A stretch of 64,000 nucleotides of DNA from an uncultured Planctomycetota bacterium (GTDB lineage: Bacteria; Planctomycetota; Planctomycetia; Gemmatales; Gemmataceae): NCBI GenBank assembly GCA_963849325.1, contig CAWKHF010000009.1, positions 224,001-288,000 on the forward strand, read 5' to 3'. Under the pieces are notes generated by a model. That model was not told where the DNA came from and searched no databases. It was given only the letters and a program-made list of their open reading frames with translations. The number at the start of each line of letters is the position of its first letter. The stretch's first letter is position 1. A program made the position numbers and the translations under genes. Positions 3,677 through 14,864 of the stretch are shown piece by piece.

Positions 3677-3874
3677 TCAGGCCGTCTTGTGCGCGGCGAG
3701 CAAGCGTCGAATCTCCGGCAGAAGGGTCGCTGGCACGATAACGACCGCCTGATCGCCGCCGGCGGCGGCCTCGTCGGCCGCGATCCACTCCTCTTCCGTC
3801 CGTGCGTCCAATTCGGCTAACAGGTGCTTGACTCGCTCCTCATCCCAGCCGGTGGGGAACCGCTGCTCGTTCAT
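3677..3874 (-). CDS. Small putative antitoxin
   Basis: MNEQRFPTGWDEERVKHLL...VIVPATLLPEIRRLLA; ATGA overlap with the upstream toxin-like gene. Confidence 0.65.
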   Translation of the reverse strand: MNEQRFPTGWDEERVKHLLAELDARTEEEWIAADEAAAGGDQAVVIVPATLLPEIRRLLAAHKTA

Positions 3875-4155
3875 CGTCCGCGTCTCCGTTGCCGCCGCCG
3901 GAAGGCTTGAAGTTGCTTGCCGGCCAGCGGGTAAGCCGTTACCACAAACATCCCCTCGCCCTCCTCGTCCGGGACGTAAATGACACGCAGATACCGGCCG
4001 GCCTCGGTTCGGCCGAGTGCTTGCCGCGAGCCACGAGAGGACGGGCCATCTTCGCCGGGATGGGCCAAGACCCATTCCGCCTCGGCCTCGGTTACGCCGT
4101 GGTCGTAGATATGGGGCAGCCCCGTCTCGGGATCGCGGTAGTACCGGACTTGCAT
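3871..4155 (-). CDS. BrnT/DUF4258-like putative toxin
   Basis: HIYDHGVTEAEAEWVL...ALGRTEAGRYLRVIY...VVTAYPL pattern. Confidence 0.7.
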   Translation of the reverse strand: MQVRYYRDPETGLPHIYDHGVTEAEAEWVLAHPGEDGPSSRGSRQALGRTEAGRYLRVIYVPDEEGEGMFVVTAYPLAGKQLQAFRRRQRRRGR

Positions 4156-4239
4156 TCCCGGTCCTCACCGTCAGGAGTTCAGAATAATTGTAGCCGGTCG
4201 ATCTTCGGCAACCAATATCGCGTCGGGCCTGACGGCCGT

Positions 4240-5268
4240 TTATTTCAGCCACAAAGCCACGTCGCGGGCGAAATACGTGAGGATCATGTCGGCACCGGCC
4301 CTCTTGATGCTGGTAAGGATTTCCAGGGCGACGCGGCGCTCGTCGATCCAGCCCTTTTGCGCCGCCGCCTTGACCAGGGCGAACTCGCCGCTGACGTTAT
4401 ACGCCGCCACGGGCACACCGAAACGATCCTTGACGCGGCGAATGATGTCGAGGTACGCCAGGGCCGGCTTGACCATCACGATGTCGGCGCCCTCGGCTAG
4501 GTCCAGCTCGACCTCGCGCAGCGCCTCGTCGCCGTTGGCGGGGTCCATCTGATAGCTGTTGCGGTCGCCGAACTGCGGCGGCGACTCGGCGGCGTCGCGG
4601 AAGGGGCCGTAAAAGCCGGAGGCGTACTTGGCCGAGTAGCTCATGATGGGCAGATGCGCGAAGCCGGCCGCGTCGAGGGCGGCGCGGAGGACGCCGACCA
4701 TGCCGTCGAGCATGCCGCTGGGAGCGACCAGGTCGGCGCCGGCTTGAGCGTGGCTGACGCACTGCTTCGCCAACAGCGGCAGCGTGGCGTCGTTATCGAG
4801 GTCGAGCCGACCCGTCGTCTCGCTCAGCACTCCGCAATGTCCGTGATCGGTGTACTCGCAGAAACATTCGTCCGTCATTAAGAGGGCACGGTCGCCGTAC
4901 TGCTTCCGCAGGGTGCGTAGAGACTGCTGTACGACGCCCTCGGGATCGAGGGCGCTGGAGCCGGTGGCGTCCTTGTGCGTCGGGATACCGAACAGGATAA
5001 AGGCACGGACGCCGAGGTCGAGGGACGTCCCGACTTCCTCCACGAGTCGATCGATGCTGAACTGATAATTGCCCGGCATCGAGGCGATTTCTTTCTTGAT
5101 GCCGTGACCGGGACGGACGAACAGCGGCAGAATGAGGTCCTCGACCGTCAGGGACGTTTCGCGGACGAGGCTGCGGATCAGTGGATGATGGCGCAGGCGC
5201 CTCGGCCGCACAGTGAGGGAAGGTTCCCTGGTGGGGCGTGGGTAGTCGGAAGGAGGATCCGTTGTCAT
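4240..5268 (-). CDS. hemB: Porphobilinogen synthase
   Basis: RPRRLR, Zn motif [42 protein letters not shown]. Alternative start at 5301. Confidence 0.97.
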
Positions 5269-5723: not shown

Positions 5724-6897
5724 TCACCCCTGGTAAACGCGGTTCGCAGCGGCGACGCCGCCGCCGGGCTGCACCTTGACTCCCTGGCTCGCCAAACACT
5801 GCTCCAGCGCCCCTAAAAACAGCAGCACCACCTCCGGTCGGCTATTGAACCCCATCAAGCCGATGCGCCACGCCTTGCCCTTGAATTCGCCGAGACCGCC
5901 GCCAATCTCGATGCCGAACTCGCTCAGCAGTCGCTTGCGCACCACCAGGTCATCGACTCCGGCCGGGATGCGCACGGCGTTGAGTTGGGGGAGCTGATGG
6001 TTCTCGTTGGCGGTATACGTCAGGCCCAGAGCCTTCAACCCCGCCTTCAGCGCCTCGTGATTGCGTTGGTGCCGCGCCCAGCGCGCTCCAATCCCTCTTC
6101 CAGCACCAACCGCAATCCTTCGTAGAGGGCGTAGACCATCGTGATCGGCCCGGTGTGGTGGTAGAAGCGATCGCTGTCCCAGTAGTGCTCGACCAGGTTG
6201 ACGTCGAGATACCAACTCTGCACTTTGGTTTTGCGTTTGCTGAACACTTCGACGGCCCGCGGGCTGAACGACACCGGTGACAACCCCGGCGGACAGCTCA
6301 ACCCCTTCTGCGAACAACTGTAGACCGCATCAATCCCCAGCCCATCGAGGGCCAGCGGAATGCAGCCCAGCGACGTGACGGCATCAACGAGCAACAAGGT
6401 GTCGAATTCGTGACACAATTCGCCCAATCCTTCCAGCGGCTGCCATGCCCCCGTCGAGGTCTCCGCCTGCACGATGGCGAGCAGCTTGGGCCGTACTTTT
6501 TGCAGCACCTCGCGGAGTTGATTGCGGTCGAACACCTCGCCCCAGGGTCGTTCGAGTACCGTGACCTGCGCCCGGCGCGGCCGGCCACCTCGACCATGCG
6601 CTGGCCGAAGAAGCCCGCGACGCAGACGACGACGCCATCGCCCGGTTCGACCAGGTTGACGAAACAGGTCTCCATGCCGGCCATGCCGGTGGCGCTGACC
6701 GGAAACGTGACCGCGTTGTTCGTCCGGAACGCGGCCCGCAGCATCTCCTGGACGCGGTTCATGATCTCCAGAAACTGCGGATCGAGATGACCCAGGAGCG
6801 GCGTGGCCATGGCGCGGAGGACGCGCGGATGAGCGTCGCTGGGACCGGGACCGAGCAACAGACGCGGCGGCGGATTCAGTTGGCCAGGTAGGTTCAT
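5724..6897 (-). CDS. Alanine-glyoxylate/serine-pyruvate aminotransferase, class V PLP (frameshifted)
   Basis: LLLGPGPS, VQAETSTG, LVDAVTSLG, SQKGLSCPPG, WRIGLMG across three frames. Confidence 0.9.
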
Positions 6898-6951
6898 GGT
6901 TCTCGTTGTTGGGGACTCATGATTCGTGGCTCGCGATGTACGAACCACGAG

Positions 6952-7518
6952 TTATGACTGTTTCATCCGTTCCTGGATCAGCCGACTGACGGCCTTGAAC
7001 TGCGGATGGTCGGCGCCGCCAATCCACTCGAAGACGCACATCTCGCAGGTCGTGAGCACGGCGCCGGCCTGCTCGAGGCGGCGCACGGCAACGTCGTGAT
7101 CGATGCGGTAGCGCGAGCCGGCGGCATCGACGGCGACGTAGACGCGGAAATCCAGGGCCAGCAAATCGAGGGCAGTGTGCAGCACGCACACGTGCGTCTC
7201 GATGCCGCACAGCACCACCTTGGGCCGCGCCGCCCGGTGGAAGGTCTGCACGACGGCCGGAACGGCGCAACTACTGAAGGCGACCTTGTCCGGCCGCTGG
7301 GGCAACTTTTGGGCCAACTCCGCCACGGTGGCCCCCAGGCCGCGCGGATACTGCTCGGTACACTGGATGGGCATGTCGAGCAGACGGGCCGCATCGATCA
7401 GGAAGGCGATGTTGCGCACGAGGCGATCGGCGTCCACGATCTTCGGGACGAGTTTCTCCTGCACGTCGATGACGAGCAAGCCGGTGTCGCCGGCCGACAT
7501 TTGCGTCGCATGCGGCAT
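6952..7518 (-). CDS. Isochorismatase-family hydrolase
   Basis: LLVIDVQEKL, TEQYPRGLG, KVAFSSC, GIETHVCV. Confidence 0.92.
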   Translation of the reverse strand: MPHATQMSAGDTGLLVIDVQEKLVPKIVDADRLVRNIAFLIDAARLLDMPIQCTEQYPRGLGATVAELAQKLPQRPDKVAFSSCAVPAVVQTFHRAARPKVVLCGIETHVCVLHTALDLLALDFRVYVAVDAAGSRYRIDHDVAVRRLEQAGAVLTTCEMCVFEWIGGADHPQFKAVSRLIQERMKQS

Positions 7519-7597
7519 GATGCGTCCTCTACCCGTGCGGAAACCCCCTGTTCGGGATGCTACGGTGTACCACGGCGGGCGTCAAGGAAGCGGCGTG

Positions 7598-7623: not shown

Positions 7624-7671
7624 GCCTGCCAACTGCGGTGGTCTTCGTTGATGCACAGGAGGTAGAATACC

Positions 7672-8877
7672 ATGCAGGTACACGAGGGAGGACAGCGCAT
7701 GCGGAAGAAGGCCGAAATCAGCAGTCTGTTTTACATTACGCACGTCGAGAACCTTCCTTCGATTCTCCAGCGCGGCATCTTGTCGCACGCGCAGGTCGAG
7801 GCGAAGAATGTCCCCTACAAGGCGATTTACGACATCGGCATTGTCAACCACCGCAAGGAGAAGAAGACGTCCACCGGCAGAAGTTTGTGGGACTACGCCA
7901 ACGTCTTCCTCCAGCCGCGCAATCCGATGATGTACCGAGTGGTTCATGAAAAGAGTTGGAAGAACCTGGCCGTCGTCGCCGTTAAGCCTGACGTTCTGAA
8001 TGGGGTTGGCGTTCTGCTGACAGATGGGAACGCGGCAAATGGGCCGACTCGGGACTACTCAGTCTCCGAGGGACTGAAGGTCATTGAGAGTCAGTGGTCC
8101 GTGATCCAGGCCGAGTATTGGTGCTCGGATGACGGATCCAAGCGGAAGATCATGGCGGAGTGTCTCGTACCGGACATGATCCAGGTAGAGCACATCCACT
8201 CAATCTATGTGGCCGATCAGGAGACGAAAAAGCGGGCTGATGAACTCCTCGGTCTCTGCCGGGTACATGTTGTTCCTGAGCCGCACATGTTCTTCCGTCC
8301 CTTGTACGCTGTGCGCATTGGCTCAAACATCTCGCTAATCGACGGGGACATGTTCTTCTCCGACATGCAAGCGCTGACGGTTAGCGTCAACTTGCAGGGG
8401 ATCATGGGCAAGGGGTTGGCTTCGCGTGCCAAGTACCAGTTTCCCGATGTGTACGTTGTCTACCAAGATGCCTGCCGAGCAAGGCGGATTACGGCGACCA
8501 AACCTTACCTGTACAAACGCGAGGCCTCGCTCGACGAAGACCTTGCGGATTCTAGCACGCCGCTGGACACTCCGAACGCGGTGAAATGGTTCCTTCTCTT
8601 CGCAACCAAACGGAAGTGGCGGGACAACTCCCGCATTGAGGACATCGAGGCCGGCTTGGCTTGGTTCAAGGACCATTTTGCCACGGAAGGCGTACAATCA
8701 CTGGCCATACCCGCTCTCGGGTGCGGACTCGGAGGCCTCGATTGGGCGACCGTCGGTCCGATCATGTGCCGGTATCTCCACGACATCGACATTCCGGTGG
8801 CCATCTACCTTCCCCGCGAACGGGCTATTGCCCCAGAGTTCCTCACGGCGTCGTACCTGCTTGGTGGGAAAACGTAG
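7672..8877 (+). CDS. darT: DarT-family DNA ADP-ribosyltransferase (DUF4433) fused to a DarG/TARG1-class macrodomain
   Basis: N-half: FYITHVENLPSILQRGILS, DYANVFLQPRNPMMY, TDGNAA, IMAECLVP. C-half: GDMF, VNLQGIMGKGLA, FATKRKW, IPALGCGLGGLDW. One uninterrupted 401-aa ORF; alternative start 7699. Confidence 0.88.
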   Translation: MQVHEGGQRMRKKAEISSLFYITHVENLPSILQRGILSHAQVEAKNVPYKAIYDIGIVNHRKEKKTSTGRSLWDYANVFLQPRNPMMYRVVHEKSWKNLAVVAVKPDVLNGVGVLLTDGNAANGPTRDYSVSEGLKVIESQWSVIQAEYWCSDDGSKRKIMAECLVPDMIQVEHIHSIYVADQETKKRADELLGLCRVHVVPEPHMFFRPLYAVRIGSNISLIDGDMFFSDMQALTVSVNLQGIMGKGLASRAKYQFPDVYVVYQDACRARRITATKPYLYKREASLDEDLADSSTPLDTPNAVKWFLLFATKRKWRDNSRIEDIEAGLAWFKDHFATEGVQSLAIPALGCGLGGLDWATVGPIMCRYLHDIDIPVAIYLPRERAIAPEFLTASYLLGGKT

Positions 8878-8900
8878 TCCGTACCTGTCTTGCCCGTGTC

Positions 8901-9015
8901 GAAACGCCGGGCATGTCGCTGTCGTACCGCGTCGAGGACAAGATGCGGCTGAGCAAGGACAAGATGGCCGTGACGGTCAATCCGTCGCGGACGCTGGTCG
9001 GCATCCCGCCGGAGC
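8901..9015 (+). pseudogene. Remnant of a Type ISP restriction-modification enzyme C-terminal domain
   Basis: ETPGMSLSYRVEDKMRLSKDKMAVTVNPSRTLVGIPPE resembles the recalled 'VEKMRLSKDK...N..LTL.GIPPE' segment of Type ISP enzymes. Similarity ends abruptly on both sides. Confidence 0.6.
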
Positions 9016-10260: not shown

Positions 10261-11671
10261 TCATACGATCGGACGAATGACCTTGCCGAGAACGGACGTG
10301 AGCCGCTCCTTGCGGCCCAGGTGCAGGTACGTGAGCTGTTCCTGATCGAGTCCGAGTTGGTGCAGGATGGTCGTGTGGACGTCGCGGAAGTGATAGGGAT
10401 CCTGTACGGCGCGGAGTCCGATGTCGTCGGTGGCGCCGACGACGCGACCGCCCTGGATGCCGCCGCCGGCCAGCCACATCGAGAAGCCGAGGTTGTGATG
10501 GTCGCGGCCCTTGCCGCCCTGCGCCTCCGGCGAACGGCCGAACTCGCCGCCCCACAGCACGAGCGTCGAATCGAGCAGGCCGCGCCGTTTCAGATCGGCC
10601 AGCAAACCCGCGATCGGCCGATCGACCCGCGCCGCCATCTGCCCGTGGTTGGACTCGATGTCCTTGTGGGCGTCCCACTGCCGGGCGCCGCCGCCGGAGA
10701 CAACGACGATGAAGCGAACGCCCTTCTCGACCAGCCGCCGGGCCAGCAGACAGCGCCGGCCGTAATCGTCCGTCGGTTCGGCTCCGACGCCGTACAGGGC
10801 CAGCGTCTCGCGCGTCTCGCCGGATAAATCGAACACCTGCGGCGCCTCCGTCTGCATCCGGAAGGCCAGCTCATACGAACTGATGCGAGCGGCCAGTTCG
10901 TCGTCATCCGGCTCCCGCGCCGCCTCGTTCAGCGCGGATGAGATCGACCGTGGCGCGGCGCTGCGGTAGGCGGACGCCGGGCGGCAGATCGAGATTGCGG
11001 ACGGGGCGGGCGCCGCCGCGGAACATGGTCGGCTGATAGACCGCTGGCAGAAAGCCGTTGGCGTACATCGGCTGACCGGCTTCGAGCGCGCCGCCGGGAT
11101 CGGGCATGACGACGTAAGCCGGCAGCGACTGGCTTTCCGAGCCGAGTCCGTAGACGATCCAGGAACCCATGCTGGGGAAGCCCGGCACCACACGGCCGGT
11201 CAACAATTCATATTGTGCCGCTGAGTGAACGACCGAGTCGCCATGACAGGAGCGAACGACGGCCATGTCATCAATGTGGCGGGCGGTATGCGGGAAAAGG
11301 TCGGATACCTCGATGCCGCTGCGGCCGGACTTCGTGAACGAGCGCTTGCTGCCGAGCAGGCGAGCATCGCGCGAAATAAATTGATATTTCGCATCGCCGA
11401 ACTCTTTCGGACGCGCCTGGCCGTCGAGCTTGTTCAGCAGCGGCTTGGGGTCAAACGTCTCCAGATGACTCGGCCCGCCAGCCATGAACAAGAAGATCAC
11501 GGCCTTCGCCCTGGATGGCGGCGTGTGCGGCGGCCTGGGAGCCAGCGGGTTTACGGACGCGGCCCGTACCGCATCCTCATGCAAGAGCGAGGTCAGGGCC
11601 AGGGTGCCGAAGCCGCAGAAGGCGTCCCGCAGAAAGGCGCGGCGATCCGAAATCGTGCTCATGGTGCTCAA
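10261..11671 (-). CDS. DUF1501 protein, Tat-like N-terminus (frameshift ~10930)
   Basis: RRAFL, IFLFMAGGPSHLETFDPKP, CLLARRLVEKGVRF, WDAH, GEFGRSP, GRDHH. Confidence 0.92.
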
Positions 11672-13657
11672 TCGACGTAGAGGAAGGCGTTCAAGTTGAA
11701 CACGGCCAGGGCGAACTCGCGCAGCGGTTGTCGTTCCAGGAACTTTCGCGCCAGCTCGCGCTCGCGCAGCGTCGGGGCACGGCCGGTCGCCAGCCGGTAG
11801 GCGCGTTCGATCTGCCGGTCGGGGTCCACGCCCGCCTCGTGCCGCAGTCGCCGGGCGAACGCCTCGGCGAGACGATGCGAGGTCGTGCCGTTGAGCAGTT
11901 CAAGGGCTTGCAAGGCGTGCGTGCTGGCGGCGCGGCGCGGGCAGCTCGTCGCCGCGTCCGGCTGATCGAATACCTCCAGAAACGGCAGGCGCAGGTTACG
12001 CTTGGCCAGCAGATACACCGAGCGCCGATCGTGCTCGCTAACGTCGGCCGTCACCTGCCACTGTCCCGGATCGTAAAGCAGGTGAACGAGGTCGTCCTCG
12101 ACAGGAAGAACGACGCTGGGTCCGCCGGCCTTGAGGTTGAGCCGGCCTGCTGTCGCCAACATGGCATCGCGGACCTCCTCGGCGTCGAGGCGGCGTCGCG
12201 GAAAGCGTCCCAGCAGGCGGTTATCCGGGTCTTTGCGCCGGTAGGTATCGTCGTTGGGAGAACGCGATGCTTGCCGGTAGGTGTTGCTGAGCAGGATCAG
12301 GCGGTGGAGCGGCTTGAGGCGGCGCCCGCCGGCGAGGAATTCGTTGGCGAGGTAGTCGAGCAGTTCGGGATGGCTGGGTGGGCTGCCGTTGACGCCGAAA
12401 TCGTTGGGCGTCGCCACGATGCCCTGGCCGAAGTGATACAGCCAGACGCGATTGACGAACACGCGAGCGGCGAGTGGGTTGTCCGGGTCGTTGATCCAGG
12501 CGGCGAGGATGCTTCGCGGCTTCTTCGTTTCCGGCGGCAGCTCCGTCGTCTCCGCCGGCATCAGCGCGGACGGTACACGCATGCCGACCGGCTTGCCCTT
12601 GCTGCTCCGGATCGCCGCGCTTGAGGACGTGGATGGCGGTGCGCTCGGCCATCACGTCGCGGACGCTGCTCATGGTCGGCAGCGGCGGCGGCAGGCGGCG
12701 CTGCATCTGGGTCAGCTGCGCCCGCATCCGCAGACGCTCGCCGCCCTCGGCCGTCTCCAGCGCCTGCCGGATGCGCTTGATCTCCCCCTGAATGGTACTC
12801 GTGCGCGTTTCCCAGTCGGCCCGCGTCTTGGCGTCGGCCAGGACGATGTCGTGCTCCTGCGTCTGGGCCAGGAACGCTTGCAGCCGATAGTAGTCGGCCT
12901 GCGAGAAGTCGTCGAACTTGTGATCGTGGCAGCGGGCGCAGCCGACGGTCAGGCCGAGAAATACCGCACCGACGCTATCCGTCATTTCCGTGAGGACTTC
13001 GTTGCGGCTGAAGGCCACTTTCGGGTTGCCGGCGTTGCGACGGATCGGGCCGAGCCGATAGAAACCGACCGCGACTTCGCCGTCGGGCTGTCCGGGAGCG
13101 ATCTCGTCGCCGGCCAGTTGTTCGCGGACGAATTGGTCATAGGGCTTGTCGTCGTTGAAGCAACGGATGACGTAATCGCGATAGCGCCAGGCGCCGGGCC
13201 GAGGACGGTCGTACTCGAACCCTTCCGTCTCGGCGAAGCGGACGACGTCGAGCCAGTGGCGGCCCCAGCGTTCGCCGTAGTGCGGACTGACCAGCAGTTG
13301 ATCGACGAGCTTTTCGTAAGCACGCGGGTCCGGCGAGGAGACGAACGCGGCGATTTGCTCCGGCGTCGGCGGCAGGCCGGTCAGGTCGAACGTGAGACGG
13401 CGGATCAGCGTCCGTCGATCGGCTTCCGGGGCCGGCCGCAACCCTTCCTTCCGTAGACGGGCCAGGATGAAGGCATCGACCCCATTACGCACCCACACCC
13501 GTCCCGCCGGATCGTGGAAGGCGGGCGCGGCCGGTCTCTCGCGCTTGCGGAAGGACCAGTGGACCTTCTCGGCGTCACTGGGGCCATTTGGTGCGGCGGC
13601 GAGAGCGGCCGGAAGCAGAGCCATCGTCAGCAGGATAACCGTAAGGAGGCCGCGCAA
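11668..13657 (-). CDS. DUF1549/DUF1553 (PSD1) protein (frameshift ~12600)
   Basis: HWSF, RRLTFDLTGLPP, YGERWGRHWLD, CARCHDHKFD, NPLAARVFVNRVW, PSHPELLDYLA. TTG start inferred from a GGAG RBS. Confidence 0.9.
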
Positions 13658-13826
13658 CTTTTGTCTCCGGCTCGGCGGGCGAGCGACACACCTCGCGCCT
13701 TCCGATTGTAAGATAGCGCTCGCAGGGTGGTCAACAGGGGGGCGCGTGCTTGTAAAACCCGGTGGTCCGAGATAGTTTAGCTTTGCCAACCGAAACCGTC
13801 CCACCTTCTTCTCCAGAGGCGCGAGC

Positions 13827-14864
13827 ATGGAAACGAAGACACTGGCCATTCGTGCGGGAATCGTGGTACTGACCCTCCTCTGGTGCGGCCTGCGGGTCCG
13901 GGCCGAAGACCCGTGGGTCGTCTACCAAGGTTCGGATGGGCCGGGTAAGGGCAAACACGTCGTCCTCGTCAGCGGCGACGAGGAGTATCGCTCCGAGGAA
14001 GCGCTGCCGCAGCTGGGCAAAATCCTGGCGCGGCATCACGGTTTCAAATGTACCGTCCTGTTCGCCATCGACCCCACGGACGGCACCATCAATCCGAACA
14101 AGAACGACAACATCCCCGGCCTGGACGCGCTGAAAAAAGCCGATCTGATGATTCTCGCCACGCGCTTCCGCAACCTGCCGGACGAGCAGATGAAACACGT
14201 CGTCGAGTATGTCGAATCGGGCCGGCCAATCATCGGCATGCGGACGGCGACGCACGCTTTCAACCTCAAGAGCAAGACCTACGCTCGATATTCATGGGGC
14301 AACAAGGAGTGGCCGGGCGGCTTCGGCCGGCAGGTCCTCGGTGAAACCTGGGTCAATCACTGGGGCCGACACGGTTCGCAGAGCACGCGCGGCATCCTCG
14401 TCAAGGAGGAGGAACACAATCCCATCCTCCGCGGCATCAAGAATGGCGACATCTGGGGACCGACGGATGTTTATGAGGTCCACCTGCCGTTGCCCGGCGA
14501 CAGCAAGCCGCTGGTCCTCGGCCAAGTGCTCCAGGGCATGAAACCGACCGACCCGCCCCTCGAAGGCAAGAAGAACGATCCGATGATGCCGGTGGCGTGG
14601 ACGAAGACGTACAAAGGGGAGTCGGACAAGACCGGCCGCGTGTTCACGACCACGATGGGAGCGGCGACGGACCTGGAGAGCGAAGGACTGCGCCGGCTGC
14701 TCGTCAACGCCGCTTACTGGACTGTCGGCATGGAAGACAAGATCGCCGCGGATTTCAACGTGGAAATCGTCGGCGAATATAAGCCATCGCCCTTCAAGTT
14801 CGGTGGTTACAAGAAGGGCGTCAAGCCATCGGACTTGGCCCAGCCCGGCGACAGCGGCCGATAG
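13827..14864 (+). CDS. ThuA-like domain exported protein
   Basis: Signal peptide; [36 protein letters not shown]. Confidence 0.85.

Follow-up and report, generated by a model that had tools for sequence, protein, structure and literature searches.

The open reading frame at positions 7672..8877 of the window (by which we mean the whole stretch of 64,000 nucleotides that was analysed) encodes a DarT-type ADP-ribosyltransferase and a DarG-type macrodomain in one polypeptide. It is almost certainly a genuine member of a known single-chain DarTG family, that of the Thermosipho africanus protein crystallised as PDB 7OMU. Our main reading, to which we give a probability of about 0.6, is that the protein would be a self-contained, DarTG2-like writer and eraser of ADP-ribosylation on single-stranded DNA (ssDNA), probably an accessory module of the toxin or defence type. 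A previous sequence-only reading of the same DNA had proposed one uninterrupted frame of 401 aa, with DarT and a DarG-type macrodomain in the same chain; the ORF analysis bore out the first point and the profile matches to both halves the second. The features to which we refer are the following, in coordinates of the window:

7672..8877, + strand: single-chain DarT-macrodomain ORF, 401 aa plus stop (intact ORF; full-length match to PDB 7OMU)
7699..7701, + strand: alternative start ATG, giving a product of 392 aa (homologue lengths; GGGAGG at 7686-7691)
7729..8295, + strand: DarT ADP-ribosyltransferase domain, residues 20-208 (Pfam PF14487, E 2.4e-45)
7852..7854, + strand: codon of R61, opposite R51 of Thermus DarT2, the Arg that abstracts the proton (alignment to 7omv)
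8029..8031, + strand: codon of N120 (in DGNAA), at the base-coordinating position (alignment; H119 in DarT2, N104 in DarT1)
8158..8160, + strand: codon of E163, the catalytic Glu of the ART fold (opposite the Glu-to-Ala position of 7omu/7omv)
8278..8340, + strand: junction of the two domains, residues 203-223; ordered in the model and conserved (pLDDT; alignment conservation)
8329..8826, + strand: DarG/TARG1-type macrodomain, residues 220-385 (PADLOC DarG, E 5.9e-44; PDB 5m3i/5m31)
8518..8583, + strand: acidic insertion in the macrodomain, residues 283-304 (gaps opposite it in the alignments to 5m3i/5m31)
8608..8610, + strand: codon of K313, catalytic Lys as in DarG and TARG1 (alignment: Lys of PTKKHWR in 5m3i/5m31)

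The DarT half matches the Pfam DarT profile over its entire length (profile positions 1-201 of 201, residues 20-208) with 155.2 bits against a cut-off of 22.5; the same span is recovered by a genome-wide profile search, and the PADLOC DarT profile matches with an E value of 1.6e-38. The equivalog cut-off of the NCBIfam toxin_DarT model is not reached (104.5 bits against 150), and by its scores this half is a diverged subfamily rather than an equivalog of the canonical toxin. All the motifs named in the sequence-only reading were located: YITH at residues 21-24, NHR at 59-61, DYANVFLQPRNPM at 74-86, DGNAA at 118-122, AECLV at 162-166 (with E163) and, in the other half, FATK at 310-313 (with K313). 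In Thermus DarT2 the proton-abstracting Arg is R51 and the catalytic Glu is E160 (PMC11543638). R61 lines up with the Arg in the "RNR" stretch of 7omv, and E163 with the Ala that the crystallised chains 7omu and 7omv have in place of their catalytic Glu.

The modified base is most probably thymidine in ssDNA; we infer this from the DarG type of the eraser and from the DGNAA motif, common to this protein and to the thymine-specific DarT of Mycobacterium tuberculosis (chain 7yk3_A, which also carries SDGNAA). The latter enzyme modifies thymine at TTTW/TNT sites, according to PMC12170906. A different base specificity had been considered because N120 stands opposite the thymine-contacting H119 of DarT2 and matches N104 of the guanine-specific DarT1. 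We do not take this as evidence, since SDGNAA occurs in M. tuberculosis DarT as well and since the family does not conserve the catalytic Asp that DarT1 has two residues beyond the Arg: the corresponding position 63 is variable, and its commonest residue, D, is found in only 22.5% of the sequences.

The second half matches the Pfam Macro profile over residues 312-364 (25.8 bits against a cut-off of 22), and its residues 217-383 align to the DarG macrodomains 5m3i (E 5.5e-18) and 5m31 (E 4e-16). Among the DarG profiles, that of PADLOC matches residues 220-384 over profile positions 2-148 of 329 only (the genome-wide search recovers this span too), and that of NCBIfam (NF048014) matches over positions 1-152 of 338 only, with 134.3 bits against a cut-off of 250. 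As both are matched only over their N-terminal part, the C-terminal domain of DarG is absent here, which confirms the earlier claim that the DarT-binding domain is missing; the frame ends 16 residues past the macrodomain. The counterpart of K313 in Thermus aquaticus DarG is, we presume, K80. The acidic insertion at residues 283-304 is, on these alignments, specific to the family and missing from free DarG macrodomains. It is conserved within the fused family (mean column conservation 0.69), and the predicted model is less confident there, with a pLDDT of about 60 at residues 291-300.

We then come to the fold. A template-free AlphaFold2 model was obtained with a mean pLDDT of 90.6 and a pTM of 0.86, and it compares with 7OMU at TMq 0.89, TMt 0.95 and an rmsd of 1.8 A over 384 columns, with 51% identity. 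Since this model superposes as a whole, the two domains are predicted to be packed on each other as in 7OMU. The sequence alignment likewise runs from end to end (query 17-397 against chain 24-404, E 3.4e-129). The entry 7OMU, entitled "Thermosipho africanus DarTG in complex with ADP-ribose", was released on 2021-06-23. Hence the implication of the sequence-only reading that the fusion is unlike everything characterised does not hold: a natural DarT-macrodomain fusion has been in the PDB since 2021. At the junction (residues 203-223) the model has a mean pLDDT of 92-95 in the 10-residue blocks which span it. In an alignment of 40 diverse members from about ten phyla, on which all the conservation figures given here for 40 sequences are based, F207 and F208 never vary and both P204 and P210 reach a conservation of at least 90%, and no gap is found at the junction in the alignments to 7OMU or to 80 loci elsewhere. 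An ordered and conserved junction of this kind speaks against a floppy, protease-sensitive linker, although the protein may still be cleaved there. In one soil-metagenome run, which contains 16% of the sampled words, three short contigs cover positions 7500-7533, 7885-8060 and 8875-9000, and none covers 8278-8340; among the matched sequencing runs there was no RNA run containing the gene region.

The T. africanus protein resembles ours in architecture and length (a chain of 406 aa against 401), and the two have in common DGNAA, the position of the catalytic Glu (Ala in 7OMU, a crystallisation mutant) and FxTK(R). They differ in about 49% of the residues and come from different phyla. In the paper behind 7OMU (Schuller et al. 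2021, Nature 596:597) this fusion is said to have been used mainly as a structural model. In the literature that was searched, which did not include that paper or LeRoux et al. 2022, no paper on the fused form was found; look-ups in PMC5179494, PMC11543638, PMC11125620, PMC9411070, PMC9503650 and bioRxiv 2025.07.02.662713 likewise gave nothing that bears on it. With the canonical DarTG2 systems (Thermus, M. tuberculosis, EPEC), the query shares the Glu and Arg of the ART fold, the Lys of the DarG/TARG1-type macrodomain, the order of DarT followed by the macrodomain and, in the case of M. tuberculosis, DGNAA. Their chemistry, the reversible ADP-ribosylation of thymidine in ssDNA as described in PMC5179494 and PMC12170906, is expected to be that of the query as well. 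However, canonical DarTG2 consists of two polypeptides instead of one, and its DarG possesses the C-terminal DarT-binding domain (which the title of Deep et al. 2023 presents as mimicking ssDNA) and does not have the conserved insertion of about 20 residues. The query moreover scores under both NCBIfam equivalog cut-offs, and Thermus DarT is only a distant relative (22% identity in the fold search; 34 bits pairwise and 71 bits with a profile).

DarTG1 is represented by the DarT1 of E. coli C7 (PDB 8BAQ), which shares the DarT fold (Foldseek E 1.2e-09) and has Asn at the base-coordinating position (N104, against N120 here), whereas in sequence it is only weakly similar (46 bits with a profile), its antitoxin is a NADAR domain instead of a macrodomain, and its additional catalytic Asp (R52-x-D54) is not conserved in the query family. 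Human TARG1 (C6orf130) matches residues 309-379, including the region of the catalytic Lys, with an E value of about 1e-6, and its fold matches that of the macrodomain half (TMt 0.83-0.86); it is eukaryotic, stands alone as an eraser and carries no transferase, unlike the eraser described here, which is joined to DarT.

The sequence-only reading had proposed to look for homologues of the same architecture, and they were found in numbers, which decisively establishes the fusion as real and common. The homology search returned 2435 homologues, and the best 120 of them all have lengths of 357-404 aa; 80 colinear genomic loci are spread over about ten phyla. Judging from these matches the fused architecture is common, with thousands of homologues in genomes and metagenomes. 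The catalytic residues which had been noticed in both halves are present and conserved throughout the family: E163, K313, M86, G119, G350 and G354 are invariant in the 40 sequences, and H24 (97.5%), R61 (95%) and N120 are at least 95% conserved, so that, on this alignment, both active sites are under selection. In all 39 comparisons the eraser half is the more conserved of the two, its mean identity to the query being 73% against 54% for the writer half; this tighter constraint would fit a lethal effect of the loss of the eraser. The nearest relatives of our copy are found in Gemmataceae and other Planctomycetota.

In the assembly (8.16 Mb, 84.7% complete) there is a single DarT match and a single DarG-like match, and both are this gene; the earlier claim that no separate antitoxin gene lies nearby is thus upheld, no second DarG-like match being found in the genome. 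The flanking genes are one of the isochorismatase family and one with an ACT domain on the opposite strand. Close full-length orthologues occur in only 5 of the 151 genomes of the host's family (Gemmataceae), and within the host genus in only one of three other genomes. The GC content of the frame is 0.57 and its GC3 0.73, whereas the GC of the window is 0.645 and four of the five neighbouring genes have a GC3 of 0.81-0.89; being lower than in the flanks, these values suggest an acquisition from elsewhere.

We clustered 912 heuristically called ORFs from the 80 loci and the window and found no conserved partner gene beyond lineage-level synteny; likewise a Pfam scan of 116 neighbours in 35 loci gave no shared partner family. 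The heuristic calling overlooked the fused gene itself in one locus (L029), where tblastn detected the fusion. The neighbours are mostly housekeeping genes, and restriction-modification or defence-like genes are seen in about 4-5 of the 35 loci (L003, L011, L052, L079). In Nostocaceae the fused gene lies between a Ser/Thr kinase gene and gnd, with a synteny conserved over 15-16 loci. No homologue of at least 60% identity was found in 72,556 plasmids or in 50,697 phage records. Viral contigs gave one match (L087, 57% identity), plasmids gave two-gene DarT and DarG systems in the order DarT then macrodomain at about 26-31% identity, and phages gave matches to the macrodomain only and one unannotated record of 7.5 kb. 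A free-standing DarT paralogue stands directly upstream of the fused gene in 8 of the 80 loci, all of them in Poribacteria. This free DarT is 36-52% identical to the DarT half of the query, with MAECLVP in both copies shown, and it matches Pfam DarT with E values of 2.7e-39 (L071) and 1.5e-40 (L072).

The fusion retains the order of the canonical darT-darG operon, DarT running straight into the N-terminal macrodomain of DarG, with loss of the C-terminal DarT-binding domain. According to our main reading, the DarT half would transfer ADP-ribose from NAD+ to a base of ssDNA, most probably thymidine, and the attached macrodomain, packed rigidly on DarT, would strip the same mark. Because the eraser is covalently attached, writing would be cancelled in cis, at a fixed ratio of 1:1, in the resting cell, and the fused protein would work without a partner gene. 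A shift of this balance, for example by a flood of phage ssDNA or by inhibition of the macrodomain, would let the modification of DNA prevail; a fixed ratio of writer to eraser nevertheless offers no obvious route to activation. The sequence-only reading had suggested that another switch may be needed for activation or, alternatively, that the enzyme may make a reversible mark on DNA. The role as an accessory, horizontally spread module of the toxin or defence type, suggested by the patchy, single-gene and low-GC occurrence, seems to us a little better than an even bet.

The reading with which it must chiefly be compared is that of a reversible regulatory or housekeeping mark on host ssDNA, for example at origins or transcription bubbles, which would tune replication or transcription and would be neither toxin nor phage defence. 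We regard this as somewhat unlikely, but several observations point towards it. In the M. tuberculosis complex, according to PMC12170906, DarT-DarG reversibly ADP-ribosylates thymidine and in this way controls both replication at OriC and transcription in stationary phase. The conservation across phyla is unusually strong (60-70% identity), the tree mostly follows the phyla (13 label changes, where 9 would be the minimum) and the location in Nostocaceae is syntenic and not in an island; these three facts are at least as fitting for a stably inherited gene with a housekeeping or regulatory task as for a defence gene that evolves fast. The neighbours are mainly housekeeping genes and include genes of DNA metabolism, PolA (L034), UvrC (L079), MutS (L067) and HhH-GPD (L046), as scattered raw occurrences, and the plasmid and phage collections are essentially devoid of close homologues. 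A core regulator would however hardly be confined to so few genomes of the host's family and genus, nor would one expect its GC and GC3 to fall below those of the flanks and suggest acquisition. Another view, which we hold to be unlikely, is that the single-chain family is a distinct, self-limiting DNA-marking enzyme and not a miniature toxin-antitoxin pair. The rigid eraser and the acidic insertion 283-304 would then gate the writer in cis, and the insertion could take the place of the C-terminal domain by which DarG mimics ssDNA. ADP-ribose would last only on certain states of ssDNA, for instance at origins of replication, in transcription bubbles or on the ssDNA of an invading phage. The strong conservation across phyla, the stable Nostocaceae synteny and the tighter constraint on the eraser would then be signs of a host function under regulation or of a "guard"; a guard would fire upon inhibition of macrodomains by a phage.

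The stronger conservation of the macrodomain half in all the comparisons, together with the free DarT of the Poribacteria loci, which resembles a toxin beside its antitoxin, might also indicate that the protein is mainly an eraser or immunity protein. It would act against ADP-ribose placed by other enzymes (for example a free DarT, or a toxin of a phage or of a competitor), and the DarT half would be a docking domain or a decoy replacing the C-terminal domain of DarG. This is improbable: the retention of the DarT catalytic set (E163 and M86 in 40 of 40 sequences, besides H24 and R61) is unexpected for a mere docking domain, the host genome contains no other DarT to neutralise, and the additional DarT is missing from most loci. 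As to an assembly artefact, in which a darT gene and an adjacent truncated darG would have been merged by a sequencing indel, the only sign of it is that several genes nearby in the window appear frame-broken. The colinearity with 7OMU is free of gaps across the junction, full-length ORFs of 370-425 aa with the same architecture are found in related loci (n=74) from independent assemblies, the junction residues are conserved and the model packs the two domains as in the crystal. The colinear loci, the conserved junction and this packing effectively refute a pseudo-fusion, which we reject with near certainty.

Since the fusion type is widespread and has already been crystallised, our copy is an ordinary new member, and this gene by itself matters little, its protein type being in the Protein Data Bank already. 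The question raised by the family is the net effect of a DNA-modifying toxin welded 1:1 to its own eraser. It is framed by the conserved active sites, the tighter constraint on the eraser, the ordered junction and the insertion in the macrodomain, as well as by the lack of a conserved partner, the patchy chromosomal occurrence and the Poribacteria variant with an extra free DarT. A compact, self-neutralising DNA ADP-ribosyltransferase could be of interest to those who build editing tools based on DarT, such as appear in PMC13368585.

Two minor observations concern the sequence itself. Near the gene, the sequence of a class-V aminotransferase runs through three frames (5724-6948), and DUF1501 (at about 10904-11193) and PSCyt2 and PSD1 (at about 12221-12582) are split as well; these apparently broken frames mean that the assembly contains indel errors or pseudogenes. 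Besides, a GGAGG-like site precedes both candidate start codons, AGGAGG at 7658-7663 for ATG 7672 and GGGAGG at 7686-7691 for ATG 7699. The homologues mostly have 390-392 aa and align to 97-98% of the 401-aa query, and since a product of 392 aa agrees with this usual length, translation may well, and probably does, start at ATG 7699 rather than at ATG 7672.

The observation that DarT and a DarG-type macrodomain are joined in one polypeptide holds, and the gene is genuine: its reading frame is uninterrupted, Pfam, PADLOC and NCBIfam profiles match its two halves, and the motifs which the sequence-only reading had listed are all found where it placed them. The features of this fused gene (the query) are as follows, residues being those of the 401-aa product.

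7672-8877, + strand: DarT-macro open reading frame, 401 codons, no interruption
7699, + strand: alternative ATG with a GGAGG-like site upstream, yielding 392 aa
7729-8295, + strand: DarT domain, residues 20-208 (Pfam E 2.4e-45, profile positions 1-201 of 201, complete)
8329-8826, + strand: macrodomain half, residues 220-385 (PADLOC DarG E 5.9e-44; NCBIfam DarG E 5.8e-39)
8518-8583, + strand: conserved acidic insertion of ~20 residues in the macrodomain, residues 283-304, with no counterpart in free DarG macrodomains

The ATG at 7699 may be the true start, since 392 aa is the usual length of the homologues. The DarG models (329 positions in PADLOC, 338 in NCBIfam) are matched over their first ~150 positions only, which correspond to the macrodomain; the Pfam Macro match, at residues 312-364, is weak, yet over threshold. 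The C-terminal half of DarG is missing, as had been claimed, and the stop codon comes 16 residues past the macrodomain. The claim that there is no separate antitoxin also holds: in the entire assembly (8.16 Mb, 14 contigs, 84.7% complete) the single DarT hit and the single DarG-like hit are those of the fused gene.

A sequence search of the PDB aligned residues 17-397 with residues 24-404 of chain 7omu_AAA (E 3.4e-129), from the entry 7OMU, which Foldseek gives as "Thermosipho africanus DarTG in complex with ADP-ribose" (released 2021-06-23). We modelled the query with template-free AlphaFold2 on a 40-sequence alignment (mean pLDDT 90.6, pTM 0.86). Because the model superposes on the whole of 7OMU as one unit (TM 0.89/0.95, rmsd 1.8 A, 384 columns, 51% identity), the folds of both halves and their mutual packing are the same as in T. 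africanus DarTG. The further structural hits include the DarT of Thermus sp. 2.9, the DarG macrodomains of Thermus aquaticus and M. tuberculosis, the M. tuberculosis DarTG complex, human TARG1 and E. coli C7 DarT1. Since a single-chain DarTG has already been solved, the premise by which every characterised DarTG system consists of two genes is incomplete; the fused gene is an additional copy of a known, structurally solved protein type and not a new kind of system. The paper accompanying 7OMU (Schuller et al. 2021, Nature) lies outside the literature that we searched, in which no paper on the fused form was found.

We rejected the possibility that the fusion is an assembly artefact: the junction (residues 203-223, window 8278-8340) aligns without any gap to 7OMU and to 39 other family members, and F207 and F208 within it are invariant. 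Its 10-residue blocks have a mean pLDDT of 92-95 in the model, and this predicted order, together with the crystal-like packing, argues against a floppy, cleavable linker. Among public reads, the sole run with a match covers three short pieces, all outside the junction.

In the alignment, the catalytic Glu of the DarT half (E163) lies opposite the Ala which replaces it in the crystallised chains 7omu and 7omv. PMC11543638 (Mol Cell 2023) gives Glu-to-Ala, E160A in T. aquaticus DarT2, as the usual change for abolishing catalysis, and R61 aligns with R51, the Arg to which that paper assigns proton abstraction. The catalytic Lys of the macrodomain (K313) is aligned with the Lys in "PTKKHWR" of DarG macrodomains. 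Across 40 sequences spanning the family, E163, K313, M86, G119, G350 and G354 are invariant, while H24, R61 and N120 are conserved in at least 95%. Since both catalytic centres are conserved, selection acts on both reactions. At the position of N120, where the base is coordinated, Thermus DarT2 has H119 and the guanine-specific DarT1 has N104. A new base specificity was considered for this Asn and rejected: SDGNAA also occurs in the chain of M. tuberculosis DarT, an enzyme whose target is thymine at TTTW, TNT being strictly required (PMC12170906), so that Asn at 120 is no argument for a new base. Given the DarG/TARG1-type eraser attached to it, the DarT half most likely targets thymidine in ssDNA. 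Profile scores of 71 bits for Thermus DarT2, 46 for DarT1 and 45 for M. tuberculosis DarT place this half at about the same distance from all three; the query falls below the NCBIfam equivalog cut-offs, and its DarT half forms a separate branch of the family.

The macrodomain half is closer to the query than the DarT half in all 39 comparisons with family members (mean identity 73% for the eraser, 54% for the writer). Such a difference is expected if a cell cannot survive without the eraser but tolerates drift in the writer. The insertion at residues 283-304, with a consensus like SLDxELADLxxPLxTPNAVKW, is where the model has its lowest confidence, and the sole internal stretch of low confidence (pLDDT about 60); it is a candidate regulatory element.

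The fusion is widespread. The query found 2435 proteins at E <= 0.001 among 5.8 billion; the best 120 of these are all 357-404 aa long, with 65-100% identity and 88-100% query coverage, and all carry PF14487 (48 of the 120 also have a precomputed PF01661). When 50%-identity representatives were searched exhaustively, 7594 hits had E <= 0.001 and 91 had E <= 1e-30, the latter including about twenty separate full-length clusters (372-421 aa, identity down to ~31-38%); the hits also comprised free DarT-like proteins of ~200 aa and DarG proteins of the ordinary kind (330-370 aa, N-terminal macrodomain). In contigs from one genome per species, 98 stretches encode a relative, and the 80 loci that we kept are all colinear with residues ~1-390 (45-84% identity, the closest being L003, from a Gemmataceae bin). 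Homologues sharing the full architecture thus exist in about ten phyla: Planctomycetota, Cyanobacteriota, Poribacteria, Acidobacteriota, Chloroflexota, Calditrichota, Verrucomicrobiota, Bdellovibrionota, Deinococcota and Vulcanimicrobiota, with one Nitrososphaerota bin. In a quick maximum-likelihood tree, 74 full-length sequences group mostly by phylum (13 label changes, where at least 9 are needed), with a few clear transfers, such as a cyanobacterium and an acidobacterial bin within the planctomycete clade. At one locus (L040:5965-7176) the fused gene is broken into two ORFs of 270 and 98 aa.

Within the host's family, 21 of 151 genomes have some match: a close full-length orthologue in five (G000, G138, G136, G029, G018), macrodomain-only matches in 12, and in four weak colinear matches reading through stop codons, the two longest of which cover almost all of the query and resemble neighbouring darT and darG genes. 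The G018 copy (G018:C34:315998-317175) is broken into two frames, the frame changing near residue 98.

We consider an accessory gene of toxin or defence type slightly favoured (probability about 0.55), in view of this patchy occurrence, of the self-sufficiency of the protein and of its low GC: 0.57 (GC3 0.73), against 0.645 for the window and a GC3 of 0.81-0.89 in four of the five adjoining genes. A regulated host function, of the kind reported for the DarT-DarG of the M. tuberculosis complex (PMC12170906), is a rather improbable alternative, which would account for the strong conservation across phyla and for the near absence of close homologues from mobile elements: no plasmid or phage record in the collections searched has a homologue of at least 60% identity, and a single viral contig, L087 (IMG/VR), carries a homologue at 57% (match 7-1176). 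This match lies at the extreme end of the 34.5-kb contig. The genomic context, mostly housekeeping, also fits a host function. The fused gene stands alone on the + strand, flanked on the - strand by an isochorismatase-family and an ACT-domain gene, with hemB, a 3-keto-disaccharide hydrolase-domain gene and DUF1501/PSD1/PSCyt2-family genes farther away. We clustered heuristic ORFs around the 80 loci and ran Pfam on 116 neighbours from 35 diverse loci: the neighbours are mainly housekeeping genes, and recurring ones are only lineage-specific, namely a Ser/Thr kinase upstream and gnd downstream in 15-16 Nostocaceae loci, a stable synteny which likewise fits a host function, and an AAA_35 ATPase and a heparinase-like protein in Poribacteria. 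By raw occurrence, a few neighbours resemble restriction-modification or defence genes (Type ISP fragments in L003, HepT and a DNA methylase in L011, two methylase-HNH genes in L052, Uma2 in L079), and a few others belong to DNA repair or replication (PolA in L034, an HhH-GPD glycosylase in L046, MutS in L067, UvrC in L079, an SNF2 helicase plus SWIM in L025).

A third reading is that the protein is mainly an eraser, with the DarT half as docking domain. It is suggested by a free DarT paralogue (about 210 aa, 36-52% identical to the query DarT half) directly upstream of the fusion in eight Poribacteria loci (L065, L071, L072, L073, L075, L077, L078, L081), at ~120 bp, e.g. L071:5259-5888 and L072:5248-5886, but the conserved catalytic residues of the fused DarT half weaken it. 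MAECLVP is kept in the two free copies inspected (L071, L072), and three of the eight (L065, L075, L078) are truncated or split. The net effect of a 1:1 writer-eraser chain is a question for the whole family and not for this locus in particular.

The query keeps the canonical operon order, DarT and then DarG with its N-terminal macrodomain, so that the simplest origin is a read-through fusion with loss of the DarG C-terminal DarT-binding domain. The covalent link would stand in place of this domain: the DarT half would write on ssDNA thymidine, the attached macrodomain would erase the mark in cis, and infection or stress might shift the balance between the two.

Several genes near the fused gene look frame-broken on the - strand: a class-V aminotransferase (5724-6948; three overlapping ORFs, the middle one alone matching Pfam Aminotran_5, at profile positions 130-275 of 371), DUF1501 (10261-11671; two overlapping ORFs, profile positions 1-170 and 161-389) and PSCyt2 with PSD1 (11668-13849; two overlapping ORFs). 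Either they are pseudogenes or the assembly contains indel errors. Elsewhere in the window, the front of a 191-aa ORF (3677-4252, - strand) is overlapped in another frame by a 94-aa ORF (3871-4155) with no Pfam match at E <= 1e-5, and its C-terminal ~65 aa lie just downstream of the latter; by eye, the two look like a small toxin-antitoxin-type pair.
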